The position numbers and the translations under genes were made by a program. From assembly GCA_000092065.1 (NCBI GenBank), contig CP000585.1: 64,000 bases of DNA; one strand, 5' to 3'. The notes under the pieces are model-generated. The model made no database searches. It had not been told where the DNA came from and saw nothing but the letters and a program-made list of their open reading frames with translations. Each line of letters starts with the position of its first letter. The first letter of the stretch is position 1. Positions 15,114-29,669 of the stretch are shown here, one piece after another. Origin of the DNA: Ostreococcus lucimarinus. Taxonomy: Eukaryota.

Positions 15114-16454
15114 CTATTTTTTCGCGTCGCGTTTCGCGCGAAACGCCTCGCGAAGCAGACTAATTTTTTCGTCCGTCACAGGATTACTCTCCACGGCGGA
15201 CTCGTTTTGAAGGAACAACACGCTCGTGTCGCTCGTCGCTAATCGATATCGAGATTTCTTCCGATGCTGCGCTCCTTCGTAATAACCATGCTCGCGAACC
15301 GATATCACTTCGGCGCGAGAGCAAAACTTTGAGCGTCTCATCTTTTCCCAACACGGGCGATTGGGCCAATGCGGGGTGACGACGACAAAAGTCAGCGCGG
15401 AAGACGCTGCGTCCAAGCACTCGAACAAATGTTCAGCCATGCGCGCGACGACGTCTTCGTCGAACGGAGGATTGGCTTCGAACGCGCCTCCTGAGGGCTT
15501 GCATGCGCGAAAGTCCCCCAGCGACCCGAAGGGCTTGTCCACGTCACCGTATTTGCTGTAATACATGGGCCAGCGACAGTTCAACGGCGAGGCGAAGAGC
15601 TCGCACTCGACTTTAAAGCAGTCACGCAGCACGTCGAAAACTTGCCCGTGTAACGAAGCTTGAGAACCACCGGAAAAACGAAACTGCCCGCCAGCCGCCG
15701 CGTCGTACCGACACACCATCGCGAACGCGTCGAACAGGAAATCATTTTCGACAAACTCTTTGGACGACGCATTCGCGTAAAGCGTTTTCAATTTCTCAAA
15801 GTGATCACCGTTCAACCGCACCTCGGTCTTTCCTACGCGCAGCGAAACGACGCCGTCGGCGCGTTCCTCCTTCGACACCGACGTCGCCGGTCCGCGAAAC
15901 TCATTTCTCATCACGCGCGCGCACTCCGTGGCTTTCATCATCATAACGCGCACGACCGCGTCGACTGCCTCATCGCTCGCGTCTTTCTTCTTCGCCCGTA
16001 ACTTCTTCGCCAACGCGTCGCCGCCGCCGTCTCCCGCCGGCACCAGCGGTTCGTCCTCCGACGCCGACGCCAACCACTCCTCGAACGCCGAGCACCACCG
16101 CTTGCCCAAATGCGGTCCCGCGACCCTCTCAAAGTCCATGCACAGGTGCGAGATCGCCCGCAATCGACACGCCTCGATCGCCGCGCGCGTCGCGCGTTCG
16201 TCGCTCGAGCTCGTCGCCTTCGCCGCGCGCTCGCGTCGCGCCCTCGCGCGCGCTTCGTCGACGTGCGCCGCGTCGAGCAACCCCTCGCGATAGTCGACGA
16301 CGACGCCGTCGTCGCGCGCCGTCGTCGCGGTCCTCGCGCGCTTCCGCGCGTCGTCGTCGTCGCGTCGTCCCTCGTCGCGCGCGCGTCGTCCGACCGGCGC
16401 CTTCGCGTCGTCGCCGCCGCGCGCGCGCGCGCGCATCGCCGCCCAGTTCGACAT
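15114..16454 (-). CDS. PCIF1/CAPAM-like mRNA cap-specific adenosine N6-methyltransferase homologue
   Basis: ATG at 16454..16452. C-terminal catalytic region closely matches the metazoan PCIF1 methyltransferase fold from memory: ELFASPLNCRW, catalytic NPPF in GGAFEANPPFDE, and SDTSVLFLQNE. Confidence 0.65.
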   Translation of the reverse strand: MSNWAAMRARARGGDDAKAPVGRRARDEGRRDDDDARKRARTATTARDDGVVVDYREGLLDAAHVDEARARARRERAAKATSSSDERATRAAIEACRLRAISHLCMDFERVAGPHLGKRWCSAFEEWLASASEDEPLVPAGDGGGDALAKKLRAKKKDASDEAVDAVVRVMMMKATECARVMRNEFRGPATSVSKEERADGVVSLRVGKTEVRLNGDHFEKLKTLYANASSKEFVENDFLFDAFAMVCRYDAAAGGQFRFSGGSQASLHGQVFDVLRDCFKVECELFASPLNCRWPMYYSKYGDVDKPFGSLGDFRACKPSGGAFEANPPFDEDVVARMAEHLFECLDAASSALTFVVVTPHWPNRPCWEKMRRSKFCSRAEVISVREHGYYEGAQHRKKSRYRLATSDTSVLFLQNESAVESNPVTDEKISLLREAFRAKRDAKK

Positions 16455-16524
16455 CGCGCGCGCGGACGCCTCGCGCGCGCGTCGTCGACGCGCGTCGCGC
16501 GCGCGCGTCGCGCGCGGCGCCGCG

Positions 16525-17304
16525 ATGTCCCGGCGACGTTCCGCGTCGGGCGCGCGCCGCCGCACACGACGACGACGCATGGCGCGCGCGGCGACGACGC
16601 CGACGCGCGCGACGACGCCGACGCCGACGCGCGGCGTCGCGCGACCGCGACGCGGCGACGCGCGCGCGCGACCGCGACGCGCGACGCGCGCGAGCGCGAA
16701 AAAGCGAAAAGGTTTCGCCGAACTCTTGGGCGGCGCGGCGAGCGACGACGGAGACGCGCGAGCGGAGCGCGCGGGCGCGACGACGAGCGCGAAGGGAAAA
16801 GCGGCGCGGAGCGCGGAGGCGCGATGCCCGTGCGGGGGAGGGCGCGATGGGCTGACGTACGCGAGCTGTTGCAAGAGGTTTCACGACGGCGACGCGTACC
16901 CGGAGGATCCGGTGACGCTGATGCGCACGCGGTTTAGCGCGTACGCCAAGGGAAAAGGACTTTATGTGGTGAAAACAACGCATCCGGATAACCCGCTGCT
17001 GATGGAGGGGGCGAAGACGAAGACGGGGAAGGTGGTGAGCACGCTGGCGCGAGACGTCGAGGCGACGTGTAAAAAGGTTCGGTTTTACGACTTGGACATC
17101 GTGCGCGACGTCAAGGGCAAGGGTAAGGGCGACGCGCGCGAGCATTTGGTTGGGTTTCGTTACAAGTGTCGGGTCGTCGGGCAACAGGGGTTCAACGAGC
17201 TTCCCGAGGAGAAACACGCGGAGCTCTCGACGTTTCGCACGACGAGGGACGACGACGGGAACGAGGTGTGGAAATTCGTCGACGGAATCCAAGGATCGAC
17301 TTAG
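16525..17304 (+). CDS. SEC-C motif / YchJ-family (UPF0225) protein with NTF2-like domain, organelle-targeted
   Basis: ATG at 16525. CPCGGG...YASCC SEC-C metal-binding motif followed by an NTF2-like fold. Confidence 0.6.
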   Translation: MSRRRSASGARRRTRRRRMARAATTPTRATTPTPTRGVARPRRGDARARPRRATRASAKKRKGFAELLGGAASDDGDARAERAGATTSAKGKAARSAEARCPCGGGRDGLTYASCCKRFHDGDAYPEDPVTLMRTRFSAYAKGKGLYVVKTTHPDNPLLMEGAKTKTGKVVSTLARDVEATCKKVRFYDLDIVRDVKGKGKGDAREHLVGFRYKCRVVGQQGFNELPEEKHAELSTFRTTRDDDGNEVWKFVDGIQGST

Positions 17305-17439: not shown

Positions 17440-18057
17440 ATGCCCGCGCTGACTTCGACCGCGCGCGCGGCCACGCACGCGTTCGCCACGCATCGCGGCG
17501 TCAACTCCCGTCGCAATCCGCGCTCGATGCAAGCCGTTCGCGCCTTCTTCGGCGGCGCCGCCACGTCATCAAAGTCCGCGCACGAGTTCACCGTGAAAGA
17601 CATCGACGGCAAGGACGTCTCGATGTCCAAGTACGCCGGAAAGGTGTGCCTCGTCGTGAACGTCGCCTCCGAGTGAGGCTTGACGGACCAAAACTACAAG
17701 GAGCTCGTCGCGCTGGACGCGAAGTACGCCAACCTTGAAGTTTTGGCTTTCCCGTCGAACGAGTTCGGCGGACAAGAACCGGGAAGCGCGGCGCAGATCA
17801 AGGCGTTCGCTCGGGAAAAGTACGGGGCAAAGTTCCCGCTGTTCGAAAAGACCACGGTAAACGGTGCGAGTGCGAGCCCGTTGTACAAGCATTTGAAGGA
17901 ATCCGCGCCCGAGTCTGGTTTGCTCGCGATGGCTGGTTCAGAAATCAAGTGGAACTTTGCCAAGTTTTTGCTCGATAAGGACGGCAAGACGATCGCGCGT
18001 TACGCGCCGACGTCTAGCCCTTTTAGTATCGAGGGGGACATCATCAAGGCGCTTTAA
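17440..18057 (+). CDS. Selenocysteine-containing glutathione peroxidase; in-frame TGA (Sec) at 17674..17676 splits it into two track ORFs
   Basis: ATG at 17440. GPx active-site motif VNVASE-U-GLTDQNYKEL, with TGA exactly at the U/C position of GPx families. Frame and GPx motifs (FPSNEFGGQEPG, WNFAKFLLDKDGK) continue to TAA at 18055..18057. Confidence 0.85.
17674..17676 (+). other. In-frame UGA selenocysteine codon of the GPx gene
   Basis: TGA between GAG (Glu) and GGC (Gly) within the conserved NVAS-x-U-G-x-T GPx active site. Confidence 0.8.
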
Positions 18058-18257
18058 TACGTCATACTGTCACGACAAAGACAGTCGCAACAGCGCAAGA
18101 TTTGCCGCGGAGAGGTGACGCTTCATCCAATAAATCGACGTCTGTCGAGGGGATGGGCCGAGTTAACATCCGCGTCGTTTCGCTCGCGCTAACATTCTTT
18201 TACATTCTCTGAACACAGTAATACAATCTACGCTATGCGGCTGCGCAATGCTCTAAA

Positions 18258-19523
18258 CTATTCTAAAAAATCGGCGACGTATTCTGCCACCGCGAGGCTC
18301 GACGTCAAGCCGGGTGACTCAAAGCCAAACAGATGCACCAAACCAACCGCACCGTGCTGACTTTCAGTTTGAAATACAAAGTCAGTCGTCGCGCCGGGCT
18401 CATCAGTGTCACCTGCTTCGTTGATGAGCTTAGGTCGGATACCCGTGAACGCCGGTCGAAGCGCGCCGTCTTGCAAACCAGGCCAGTACTCGCGAATCGC
18501 CTCGTAAAACGAACGCACGCGCGCTGGGTTCATCGTGTAATCGATGTCGTCTATCCATTCAATGTCAGGACCAAACTTGCACTTGTCGTAAACATCGCGA
18601 GTGAAGTGCACACCCAGACCTCCTTCTCTCGGCAAAGGATACACGAGCCGCTGAAAAGGCGCCGAGTAGCCTTTTTTCAGCTCACAATACATCCCTCGCG
18701 CGAAATACAAAGGCGGTGGCGGCGTCACGGAGATGTCGTAAACATCTAACAACCGATCGCACAACCGGTGTGCGTATAGCCCGGCGGCGTTCACTAAGCG
18801 CGGCGTAGAAATTACGCGACGCGACTTTGTCTTCACCTGAAACGTTTTGCTCAGCCCGCGCGTGATCTCAACCACTTCATCCCCGAGCGCCACCGTTGTT
18901 CGCCCATCTCGCACGCAATCGCGACGAAACGACTCCATGAGCTCTTGAACGTCGACGATACTCGTCGAAGGCGACAAAACCCCAGCGTAACCTCGCACAT
19001 TTTTCTCGTACGCCGTGAGTTGCTCCGACGTGAGCAACGCCAAGTCGTCGACGTCGTTCATCTGCGCTCTCGTAATCATCGCCTCGAGCGCGTCCATCTG
19101 ACTCTCATCCCGCGCGACGATGAGTTTACCTATGTTTTCCCACTTTACATCTTTCTTCTCACAGTATTTCACAATCTTTCGCCGCCCTTCGACGCAAAAC
19201 TTTGCCTTCGCGCTTCCCGGGACGTAATGCATCCCCGCGTGTAACACCTCCGAGTTCTTTGAGCTCGTCTCCGCGCCGATGCTCTCCGCTTTATCGATGA
19301 CGCACACGCGCATACCACGCAAAGACAAGGCGCGCGCGCACGCCAGTCCGATGACACCGGCTCCGACGACGACGGCGTCGTAGCGTTCATCAGCGTCAAA
19401 GCCGCGAAGGGCGCCCGGACGGAACGTCGTCGCGCGCGCTGTGCGGGCGCGCCCGTGCGGTAGCGCGCGCGCGCGTGACGTCAATACATCACGAGACACG
19501 CGTTGCGCATCGTGGACCCGCAT
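18258..19523 (-). CDS. L-2-hydroxyglutarate dehydrogenase (FAD-dependent oxidoreductase), mitochondrial-type
   Basis: ATG at 19523..19521 (the track start is TTG). Dinucleotide-binding motif YDAVVVGAGVIGLACARAL. L2HGDH-like core SEVLHAGMHYVPGSAKAKFCVEG...KLIVARDE. Confidence 0.75.
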   Translation of the reverse strand: MRVHDAQRVSRDVLTSRARALPHGRARTARATTFRPGALRGFDADERYDAVVVGAGVIGLACARALSLRGMRVCVIDKAESIGAETSSKNSEVLHAGMHYVPGSAKAKFCVEGRRKIVKYCEKKDVKWENIGKLIVARDESQMDALEAMITRAQMNDVDDLALLTSEQLTAYEKNVRGYAGVLSPSTSIVDVQELMESFRRDCVRDGRTTVALGDEVVEITRGLSKTFQVKTKSRRVISTPRLVNAAGLYAHRLCDRLLDVYDISVTPPPPLYFARGMYCELKKGYSAPFQRLVYPLPREGGLGVHFTRDVYDKCKFGPDIEWIDDIDYTMNPARVRSFYEAIREYWPGLQDGALRPAFTGIRPKLINEAGDTDEPGATTDFVFQTESQHGAVGLVHLFGFESPGLTSSLAVAEYVADFLE

Positions 19524-27253: not shown

Positions 27254-27326
27254 CGCGCGCGCGTCTCGCGTCGCCGGCGCCGCGTCGCACGCGACCGCGC
27301 GCGCGCGATCCGGACCGTCGTCGCGC

Positions 27327-27357
<31 letters not shown>

Positions 27358-27416: not shown

Positions 27417-29669
27417 ATGACGACGCGCGAACCGACGACGTGGCGCGACGTCGACGCGCGCGACGTCGGCGCGCGCGCGCGCGCGCTCGCCGATCGTCGA
27501 CGTCGACGCGATGCGACGCGCGGCGCGTCGTCGAGCGCGCCGGACGCGCGACGCGCGAGCGATTCGTCGCGCGTGGAGGACGCGCTGGGATTCGAAGGCG
27601 TCGACGCCGTCGCGCTCGTCGAGCGCGCGCGCGCGACGGCGGGCGAAGACGTCGACGCGTGGGATGAGAAACGCGCGCGCCGCGCGACGCTGGCGAGGAT
27701 GACGACGACGGAGGAGGGGTTCGACGCGAGGGCGTATCTCGTCGCGGCGCACGGCGAGCGAACGCGCGAAGAGCTGGCGAGAGGGGCGACGAGGCTGGAG
27801 GCGGAGATCGACGCGGTGCGGGCGTCGACGCGAATGTCGGCGGCGGAGGAGTTGCCGACGGTGCTGGCGTGCTTGGACGCGATGGAGGACGCGAGAGGGG
27901 TGCTGCGAAGAGGGCGAGAGGAGGCGGGCGAATTCGGCGCGACGGCGGAGTTGGAGGCGCGACTGTCGCGAGCGTGGAAGAGCGCGAGGGAGAGCTTGAG
28001 GGAGGTCTTTGCGATCGAGGAGAGACGGGAGAAGATTGCGCGCGCGCTCGAGGCGATGGAGCGGCACGAGGACGTGTTCGGGATTCCGGGAGCGGTGCGA
28101 GAAGCGCTGTCGCGAGGAGAGTACGCGCGCGCGGCGGAGACGTATCGTCGCGCGCGCGCGGCTTTCAGCGGCAAACGCTCGCGCGTCTTAGATGCGGTCT
28201 TGGATGAAGTCGAAGAAAACGTGAAATCCGCGGAGGAGCGCATGTACGAACGCTTGTACGTGGGAGACCTCGACGACGCTCACGCGGAAAGAATCGTCAC
28301 GGCGCTGCAGACGTTGAAACTTTGCAGGCCCGCGTTGACGTCGAGTCAGGGTGAAGTCACGGCTGCCGGTAATGCCGTGCATATTTATTTAGATAGATTA
28401 GTGGAGTACGCGTGCGAGGAACTGACGAACACGGCCTCGAGCGATGACTTTGACGTCGAGACGCTCAGTCGAGGATATCGCGCGCTTTTCGTTCGCGTCT
28501 GGCGCTTCGTGACTCTCATGGACACGTGTGCGTCGTCATACGCGCGTGATGCGTCGACTAAGATCCAATCGGTATACGTTGGTTTCATGAAATCCAGGTT
28601 TGACAACAGTCTCAACAAGCGGACAATTGAAACTGACGCCGAGCAAGCGAATCGTCGCTTTGACGTCTTAATTGACAAGTGCGCGAAAATGTCTTGCATC
28701 GGCTTTTCGTTATCGTATTCATACGATATTCTTGGCACGCGATTAAGCTTACAACCGGACTTGCTCGAGGCACTGCAGCAACAATACACGCGTTTTAGCG
28801 TCAGTTTGCGCGTGCACTTGGAACAAGCGCTCAAGTTGGCGGCGCAACCGCTCGCGCAAGACCAACGCCTCGAGACGACCACACAGTCGTTCTTCCGTGA
28901 TGCACGCGTCGTATTTCAAATCACCGCGGAATACTGGCTCGATGAGCGGTTCACGCCTTGGATGATCAACGCCGGTTCACGAGACGTGGGAAGTTTGATT
29001 GACACCTTTTACGACGCTGCTCGCTCGCTCGTGGCGCTGGCACGCGAACTTCGGCGTGGTCCGTTGGCGTCGTTGGCCGCTCTGAAACAGATCGAAAATT
29101 GGTGCGCGGTATTTTTCGATGAGTTCAATTTTACTGGGACCGGAATAGGTAACGAGGCGAATCGCGTGGCGTTCAGAGACGACATCTCACGAACCACGCA
29201 AATGTTTCTGGACGAATTTGTCGGTGGCGAAATGAGCGCAATTATCGTCGCAGTGCGCCGTTGGTTCGCAGCACCGGTGGAGAAAACGTTAGAATCACGC
29301 CCGGAATGCGTCGATGTCTTGCATCGGGTGCGTTCAACGTACGAGTCTGCGACGTCCACGGTGCCCGAACTCGCCACGGCCATCTCGCAAGACATCGCGG
29401 CGCGACTCGTCGACGCGTTACGCTCCGAGTTCACCTCGAATCTCAGTCAGCTTAGACCGACGGCGAGTACACTTCGCGTAGAGTTCGAGCTTTTGAAGCT
29501 CGCGCTGGACGCGCGCTCGACGAAACAGGCGCGAGACGGCGCGTCTCGTCTCGTCGATTTGGCGGCGCGCGTCGCCCCCGACGACGACGCCATCGCGCGC
29601 GCGCGGGCAATCGCCAACGACGCTCAAAAACACAAACACCTCCTTGTCGCGCTCGGGAGATTAGCCTAG
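27417..29669 (+). CDS. Hypothetical large alpha-helical protein (possibly a vesicle-tethering/exocyst-like subunit; not confidently assigned)
   Basis: ATG at 27417. 750-codon ORF with non-repetitive helical composition after an Arg/Asp-rich N-terminus. Confidence 0.5.
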   Translation: MTTREPTTWRDVDARDVGARARALADRRRRRDATRGASSSAPDARRASDSSRVEDALGFEGVDAVALVERARATAGEDVDAWDEKRARRATLARMTTTEEGFDARAYLVAAHGERTREELARGATRLEAEIDAVRASTRMSAAEELPTVLACLDAMEDARGVLRRGREEAGEFGATAELEARLSRAWKSARESLREVFAIEERREKIARALEAMERHEDVFGIPGAVREALSRGEYARAAETYRRARAAFSGKRSRVLDAVLDEVEENVKSAEERMYERLYVGDLDDAHAERIVTALQTLKLCRPALTSSQGEVTAAGNAVHIYLDRLVEYACEELTNTASSDDFDVETLSRGYRALFVRVWRFVTLMDTCASSYARDASTKIQSVYVGFMKSRFDNSLNKRTIETDAEQANRRFDVLIDKCAKMSCIGFSLSYSYDILGTRLSLQPDLLEALQQQYTRFSVSLRVHLEQALKLAAQPLAQDQRLETTTQSFFRDARVVFQITAEYWLDERFTPWMINAGSRDVGSLIDTFYDAARSLVALARELRRGPLASLAALKQIENWCAVFFDEFNFTGTGIGNEANRVAFRDDISRTTQMFLDEFVGGEMSAIIVAVRRWFAAPVEKTLESRPECVDVLHRVRSTYESATSTVPELATAISQDIAARLVDALRSEFTSNLSQLRPTASTLRVEFELLKLALDARSTKQARDGASRLVDLAARVAPDDDAIARARAIANDAQKHKHLLVALGRLA

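Follow-up and report, generated by a model that had tools for sequence, protein, structure and literature searches.

The locus considered here lies in a stretch of 64,000 nucleotides of Ostreococcus lucimarinus (NCBI GenBank assembly GCA_000092065.1, contig CP000585.1), referred to below as the window. It raises the question of whether a TGA triplet at 17674-17676, inside a reading frame for a glutathione peroxidase (GPx), ends translation or is decoded as selenocysteine (Sec), and of where the corresponding Sec insertion sequence (SECIS) element would then be found. The present analysis leads to the answer that 17440-18057 on the plus strand is almost certainly the nuclear gene of the selenoprotein GPx GpxB, with UGA at codon 79 and a type 2 SECIS in the 3' untranslated region (3' UTR) at about 18099-18181. 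Both the gene and its type of SECIS are already known, having been published in 2007 by Lobanov et al. (PMC2375036).

The one-frame translation of 17440-18060 gives a single frame of 205 codons at 17440-18057 (plus strand), which is terminated by TAA at 18055-18057 and whose sole internal stop is the TGA at 17674-17676, in the peptide context VNVASE-*-GLTDQNYKEL. The complete coding sequence of GpxB, 205 codons and the TAA, is placed at 17440-18057 on the basis of this frame, the Pfam match, the published locus, and an MPAL start common to the orthologous loci L001, L013, and L016. In the mechanical list of open reading frames (ORFs) the gene is cut into 17440-17676 (78 amino acids plus the TGA) and 17680-18057. 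The original prediction, a reading of the DNA made earlier, had noticed this split and held that the frame runs on to 18057, which the translation bears out.

The two pieces could be taken for two small genes, a 78-residue protein that ends at the TGA and a 125-residue GPx fragment that starts at TTG 17680, and this is how public metagenome annotations present them. Against this stands the Pfam GSHPx domain (PF00255), which crosses the TGA. With the TGA replaced by Cys in the query, the match extends over residues 48-153, that is, profile positions 2-108 of 108, with 122.5 bits and an E value of 7.3e-36 (the curated cut-off is 27 bits). Each half on its own falls short of a complete GPx fold, the C-terminal piece is devoid of the catalytic residue, and TTG 17680 is in frame and 3 nt after the TGA, which leaves no room for a eukaryotic promoter or 5' UTR. 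Because the domain is continuous across the TGA, we consider the two-gene explanation refuted and leave it hardly any chance at all.

The TGA encodes residue 79, which has the peroxidatic role in the catalytic tetrad of GPx enzymes. In alignment A2, which includes plant and haptophyte Cys homologues, the members of the tetrad, namely U79 (the TGA), Q112 (in the motif FGGQEPG), and W171-N172 (in KWNF), stand in invariant columns. In plant and other GPx enzymes, the residue aligned to the TGA codon is the catalytic Cys, as it is in 2v1m, a solved structure of the GPx4 type to which the whole tetrad can be aligned. The TGA is thus found exactly at the catalytic Sec/Cys position of the GPx families, where the original prediction had put it. 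The first 40-45 or so residues of GpxB, on the other hand, form an Arg/Ala-rich N-terminal extension that is poorly conserved and that is possibly a targeting peptide.

Whether the TGA is genuine can be examined through the orthologues. If it stemmed from faulty sequencing or assembly, or had arisen in this strain alone by nonsense mutation of a Cys-type GPx (TGC or TGT to TGA), the locus would be a pseudogene or a gene truncated at residue 78. The two ORFs made by the automatic callers are compatible with such a scenario, as is the Cys found at the TGA position in land-plant and some algal homologues (L018, L019, and P0118). Orthologous loci of the Mamiellales were fetched from the contigs of the closest protein matches, these being independent metagenome and Logan contigs. 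Six further lineages (L001-8, L010-12, L013, L014, L015/16, and L017) share the TGA at this codon, within the motif VNVAS[EQKA]-TGA-GLT[DSK]QNY, and the window brings the number to seven. The TGA-bearing lineages are 25-40% apart in protein sequence and are represented by many independent assemblies. The Mamiellales orthologues, with which the original prediction had proposed an alignment, hence carry TGA at this codon and not Cys. The same triplet is also found in L009, an environmental variant with 98% identity to the window gene.

The pattern of substitutions provides a further view of the region past the TGA. When the window is compared with five orthologues, changes at the third codon position outnumber those at the first and second positions both upstream and downstream of the TGA. 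Between the window and L001, for example, 21, 21, and 52 changes are counted at codon positions 1, 2, and 3, respectively, over the 125 codons downstream. From this third-position excess it follows that the downstream region evolves as coding sequence. The coding-type constraint past the TGA, the identical codon in diverged lineages, the conserved and covarying SECIS in every 3' UTR (see below), and the publication of the gene as a selenoprotein all argue against an error or a nonsense mutation, a possibility to which we assign practically no weight.

In the protein search, the closest relatives are C-terminal fragments of 124/125 residues with 74-98% identity, which correspond to gene calls beginning just past the same stop. 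The split halves of the gene are present on hundreds of public contigs; P0150, P0002, and P0047 are such pieces in the public annotation, where the 78-residue half is a "hypothetical protein" (the exact sequence occurs on 428 contigs) and the other a "glutathione peroxidase-family protein" of 124/125 residues without the catalytic residue. A metagenome scan by protein alignment gave, among the matches listed, mostly bacterial Cys-GPx proteins, the only useful additions being L016 and L017. Two close matches from ENA metagenome assemblies, P0001 (163 residues) and P0003 (150 residues), cover the Sec site or run past the C-terminus and were set aside as apparently chimeric; in each of them, one part is the same as in the window protein and the other comes from another GPx, the junction being a highly conserved motif (FGGQEPG in P0001, KWNFAKFL in P0003).

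We turn now to the SECIS, which the original prediction had expected in the 3' UTR. It is located at 18099-18181 on the plus strand, the extent of the full match of a covariance model, and belongs to type 2, here the "Ostreococcus type". The match scores 80.1 bits with model R1 and 66.3 bits with model R2, which was built from the other lineages only, and it is accompanied by the minimum-free-energy fold and by the folds of the orthologues. The element lies 42-124 nt past the GpxB stop on the same strand, 441 nt after the UGA, and 76 nt short of the stop of a convergent L2HGDH-like gene at 18258-18260. The intergenic space, estimated beforehand at about 200 nt up to the end of L2HGDH at 18258, measures exactly 200 nt. 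On account of this short distance the SECIS had been thought to be necessarily compact or to overlap the neighbor in antisense; it is neither, as its span of about 73-83 nt is an ordinary SECIS size and 76 nt are left to spare. There is no overlap of the SECIS with the L2HGDH coding sequence.

The minimum-free-energy fold of 18095-18185 consists of helix I, an internal loop, helix II, an A-rich bulge, and a mini-stem. Helix I is formed by the 5' strand CGCGGA (18106-18111) and the 3' strand UCCGCG (18169-18174), as seen from the fold and from covariation, 7 of the 13 helix I pairs being changed on both sides across the lineages. The internal loop has GUGA on its 5' side (18115-18118), recognized from the aligned orthologues as an unpaired G followed by the UGA of the non-Watson-Crick quartet, and GA (18160-18161) on its 3' side. 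The constrained folds of all orthologues have a GA right at the junction of helix II and helix I. By analogy with the established SECIS structure, G18117 and A18118 would be the partners of the GA at 18160-18161 in tandem sheared G.A/A.G pairs. Helix II, supported likewise by the fold and by covariation, pairs the 5' strand GCU-U-CAUCC (18120-18128), in which U18123 is bulged, with the 3' strand GGAUGGGC (18151-18158). The A-rich bulge AAUAAA (18129-18134) follows, containing the invariant AAA at 18132-18134, 13 nt past the core, which represents the conserved unpaired "AA" of SECIS elements. The apical mini-stem (18135-18148), UCGAC/GUCGA with the loop GUCU, is the feature that defines type 2; its 5 base pairs join 18135-39 to 18144-48 and are found both in the fold and in the covariation.

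These results also settle the candidates that had been put forward for the element. The GTGA at 18115-18118 proposed earlier is indeed the SECIS core according to the fold, the motif in the orthologues, and the covariance models. The AA noted 10 nt after it is present, in the sense that a first AA stands there, while the conserved AAA lies 13 nt after, at 18132-18134. A canonical AUGA had been sought by eye and missed, because the Ostreococcus SECIS has a G before the UGA core and a long apical mini-stem (PMC2375036). The hairpin suggested at 18072-18087 corresponds to a 6-bp stem, 18066-71/18080-85 (ACTGTC/GACAGT, with an 8-nt loop), just after the GpxB stop; it falls outside the covariance-model match, is absent from the orthologues, and is no part of the SECIS.

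The architecture is conserved throughout the orthologues. Downstream of the stop, each of them has the motif [AG]UGA-N13-AAA, with invariant AAA columns, at a distance of 46-63 nt in six lineages and of about 137 nt in L017. Eight of the nine aligned sequences have GTGA as the core, and L017 has ATGA. Every orthologue folds to helix I, the internal loop, helix II, the A-bulge, and the mini-stem, regardless of whether the folding is constrained or unconstrained. Pairs were counted in A5, a covariance-model alignment, which took the place of the plain MAFFT alignments A1 and A3 of the SECIS, where the 3' strand is misplaced. An alignment of this kind leans toward structure, and it was checked by a control with slid partners and by the leave-one-out model.

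In A5, 82.4% of the pair cells contain standard pairs, compared to 34-46% after a shift of the 3' partners by 1-3 columns. Compensatory changes on both sides are seen in 12 of the 26 pairs, and the observed covariation score was reached by none of 500 shuffles. The mini-stem is paired in 95.6% of its cells, with both-side changes in three of its five pairs, while in helix II the pair 27/58 of A5 is A-U in four sequences and G-C in four. A variant was encountered in L009 (L009:468-550, JGI Ga0182088_1121104), where a G-to-A change in helix I turns CGCGGA into CGCAGA and breaks one G-C pair, the covariance-model score going from 80 to 73 bits.

The leave-one-out model R2 was also run on the whole 64-kb window, on both strands and with the filters off. 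It returns a single strong match, 18099-18181 (plus strand), at 66.3 bits and an E value of about 8e-15; the next best scores 21.4 bits. The other covariance-model matches, the best of them at 27293-27340 (minus strand) with 20-21 bits, have the core and the apical part deleted and were judged to be due to chance. The top spurious matches, 27293-27340 (minus) and 27424-27477 (plus), at 17-21 bits and without core or apical part, are GC-rich (about 0.8) inverted repeats.

A number of results weigh against the assignment of the locus as a selenoprotein gene with a SECIS. The covariation sample is small, nine sequences from seven lineages, in an alignment fitted to the model (R1). The folding energy has a z score of -0.84, and 37 of 200 shuffles fold at least equally well, which is unexceptional in GC-rich sequence (the GC content of the window is about 60%). 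The SECIS models of Rfam 15 give no match on 17900-18700 at E <= 10, and in a scan of the whole window no Rfam match attains the gathering score. The Sec-decoding machinery lies outside the 64-kb window, which contains neither SBP2 nor EFsec and in which a search found no tRNA-Sec. Finally, the data on Sec insertion (75Se labelling and proteomics) come from the sister species O. tauri, not from O. lucimarinus. Because the energy is unexceptional and the Rfam models are silent, the support for the SECIS rests on conservation and covariation and not on stability or on a database model. It can be added that an Rfam match to SNORD101 at 18415-18462, in the L2HGDH coding region, has 19.7 bits, where the gathering score is 47, and is a chance match.

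In one alternative, Sec plays no part at the UGA, which undergoes read-through or reassignment, for instance as Trp or Cys by near-cognate tRNAs, and the hairpin serves mRNA stability, localization, or termination between the convergent genes. The failure of the Rfam SECIS models to recognize the hairpin is in its favor, as is the fact that Sec insertion in GpxB is inferred in this analysis. The TGA is, however, the commonest ordinary stop in the window, where it ends 12 of the 23 longest non-overlapping ORFs; the recoding is therefore gene-specific, and UGA is not reassigned in this organism. The UGA, in addition, coincides exactly with the Sec position of animal GPx1-4, and the hairpin has all SECIS hallmarks at fixed spacing ([A/G]UGA, N13, AAA, and the GA of the 3' strand between the helices). 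It also fits the published description of Ostreococcus SECIS elements (PMC2375036). The same study reports 75Se labelling of O. tauri proteins, with a dominant band of about 25 kDa ascribed to a GPx, which shows that O. tauri takes selenium into its proteins. We judge Sec-free reading of the UGA to be very improbable, albeit a little less so than either an erroneous TGA or two small genes, and all three explanations jointly keep no more than a slim chance.

With GpxB as a selenoprotein, the events at the UGA can be described by analogy with established eukaryotic Sec decoding. The kink-turn core GUGA...GA of the SECIS would bind SBP2, which would in turn bring EFsec with Sec-tRNA(Sec) to the ribosome that has reached UGA 17674, such that the ribosome would insert Sec at this codon rather than terminate. 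Sec79 would then act as the peroxidatic residue of the Sec/Gln/Trp/Asn tetrad in the reduction of hydroperoxides. In this description, direct observation covers the continuous frame, the domain, the conserved TGA, the coding-type constraint past it, and the hairpin with its position, conservation, and covariation, while family knowledge supplies the recruitment of SBP2 and EFsec, the non-Watson-Crick pairs, the insertion of Sec in O. lucimarinus, the substrate, and the reductant.

The enzyme itself resembles GPx proteins of the GPx4 type. The best solved relatives are Schistosoma mansoni GPx (2v1m, 9e-51), human GPX4 (7l8m and 2obi), and poplar GPX5 (2p5q), the S. mansoni and GPX4 structures matching residues ~43-204 with E values from 9e-51 to 5e-45. 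Mouse GPX4 is also among the top PDB matches, and the GPx4 type is closer than the tetrameric GPx1 type. On the strength of these similarities, GpxB is probably a monomeric peroxidase like GPx4 and the plant PHGPx enzymes. It shares the position of the catalytic residue with mammalian GPX4 (PHGPx) and the S. mansoni enzyme, from which it differs in being algal and in having the N-terminal extension of about 45 residues. Native animal enzymes of the GPX4 type are Sec enzymes that are decoded via a SECIS in the 3' UTR. With the GPX/PHGPx proteins of land plants and other streptophytes (poplar GPX5; Selaginella, Chara), the identity is 55-60% over the domain and the motifs are the same, the difference being that most of these proteins carry Cys in place of Sec and have no SECIS.

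Most of these plant proteins also depend on thioredoxin through a resolving Cys, as is established for poplar GPX. At the corresponding positions, the window protein has FPSNEF (17749-17766), with Ser where many GPx proteins have the Cys of FPCNQF, and AFAREKYG (17806-17829), which contains no Cys and aligns with the plant FACTR; the L001 lineage keeps FPCNQF. Since Cys is lacking at these positions of the plant enzymes, the mechanism with a resolving Cys and thioredoxin may not apply to GpxB, as judged from sequence, and its reductant may differ from that of the plant enzymes.

Comparison with the published record identifies the locus. The selenoprotein genes counted by Lobanov et al. number 26 for O. 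tauri and 29 for O. lucimarinus, five GPx homologues being included (PMC2375036). Their O. lucimarinus GPx locus Chr_5 [241440, 242054], of 615 nt, equals positions 17440-18054 of the window plus 224000. The row "O. lucimarinus GpxB" in their supplementary file 2 starts with MPALTS, contains VNVASEUGLTDQNYKELVALDAKY--ANLEVLAFPSNEF, and matches the sequence of the window, and the row "O. tauri GpxB" is the sequence of L010-L012. The O. tauri orthologue, "Glutathione peroxidase B" (ostta05g01540), has been quantified in proteomic data (PMC8834552). The gene described here is the O. lucimarinus GpxB of that study, with no difference of substance; what is added are the coordinates of the SECIS, the orthologues from uncultured Mamiellales, and the count of covarying pairs.

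According to the same work (PMC2375036), each Ostreococcus species has only one SECIS without a G immediately ahead of the quartet, and a long apical mini-stem is present in almost all of the elements. The present element is like these type 2 SECIS elements of the "Ostreococcus/Chlamydomonas style" in its location in the 3' UTR, helix I, the internal loop, the UGA/GA core, the bulged helix II of about 8-10 bp, the G before the UGA, the unpaired A-rich stretch, and the apical mini-stem. Most animal SECIS elements have AUGA, in contrast to the GUGA of the window element, which is set in a short 3' UTR about 42 nt past the stop. A single SECIS of the ATGA type is mentioned by Lobanov et al., for one of the GPx genes of O. 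lucimarinus (PMC2375036). In our material, L017:1033-1116 (JGI Ga0182096_1174639) is an AUGA-type SECIS about 137 nt past the stop of a GPx with 61% identity and with the TGA at the same codon.

The neighborhood of the gene is conserved as well. The convergent gene at 18258-19523 (minus strand) encodes an L-2-hydroxyglutarate oxidase/dehydrogenase-like flavin adenine dinucleotide enzyme (L2HGDH; Pfam DAO, E value 6.7e-57), which is 100% identical over 373 residues to XP_001417961.1 of O. lucimarinus CCE9901. The convergent arrangement of GPx and L2HGDH recurs in the orthologous contigs, and where these are sufficiently long, the gene order is the same as in the window, that is, a PCIF1-WW gene, a YchJ-like gene, GPx, and convergent L2HGDH. 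In the window, the YchJ-like protein is encoded upstream at 16525-17304 (plus strand; Pfam YchJ_M-like, with a CPCGGG...YASCC motif), and the ORF at 15114-16580 (minus strand) matches in position the PCIF1_WW-domain gene of the orthologous contigs, the order of the four genes being kept in L001-L008.

A search for a conserved motif of the poly(A) type between the convergent genes yielded AT-rich "TACA" patches and no alignable motif. One such AT-rich patch, in which the words TACA/TAATAC recur, occupies the middle of the intergenic space at 18195-18235 in the window, at about 3520-3550 in L001, at about 1290-1320 in L010, and at about 800-830 in L014, and it may be a shared polyadenylation or termination zone. 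One could also imagine that L2HGDH transcripts run antisense through the SECIS at 18099-18181 and modulate Sec decoding or the stability of the GpxB mRNA. We consider such coupling quite improbable; if true, it would be a regulatory link particular to ultra-compact genomes.

As the gene and the SECIS type have been in the literature since 2007, the discovery value of the locus is small. It serves instead as a positive control, in that a reader with nothing but the DNA letters can recognize a real selenoprotein gene together with the correct SECIS core. It also has a bearing on annotation, as hundreds of public contigs still show this gene in two pieces made by automatic callers. For the selenoprotein genes of the Mamiellales, finally, the SECIS models of Rfam miss the type of element found here, and a small lineage-specific covariance model recovers it, with scores of 66-80 bits.

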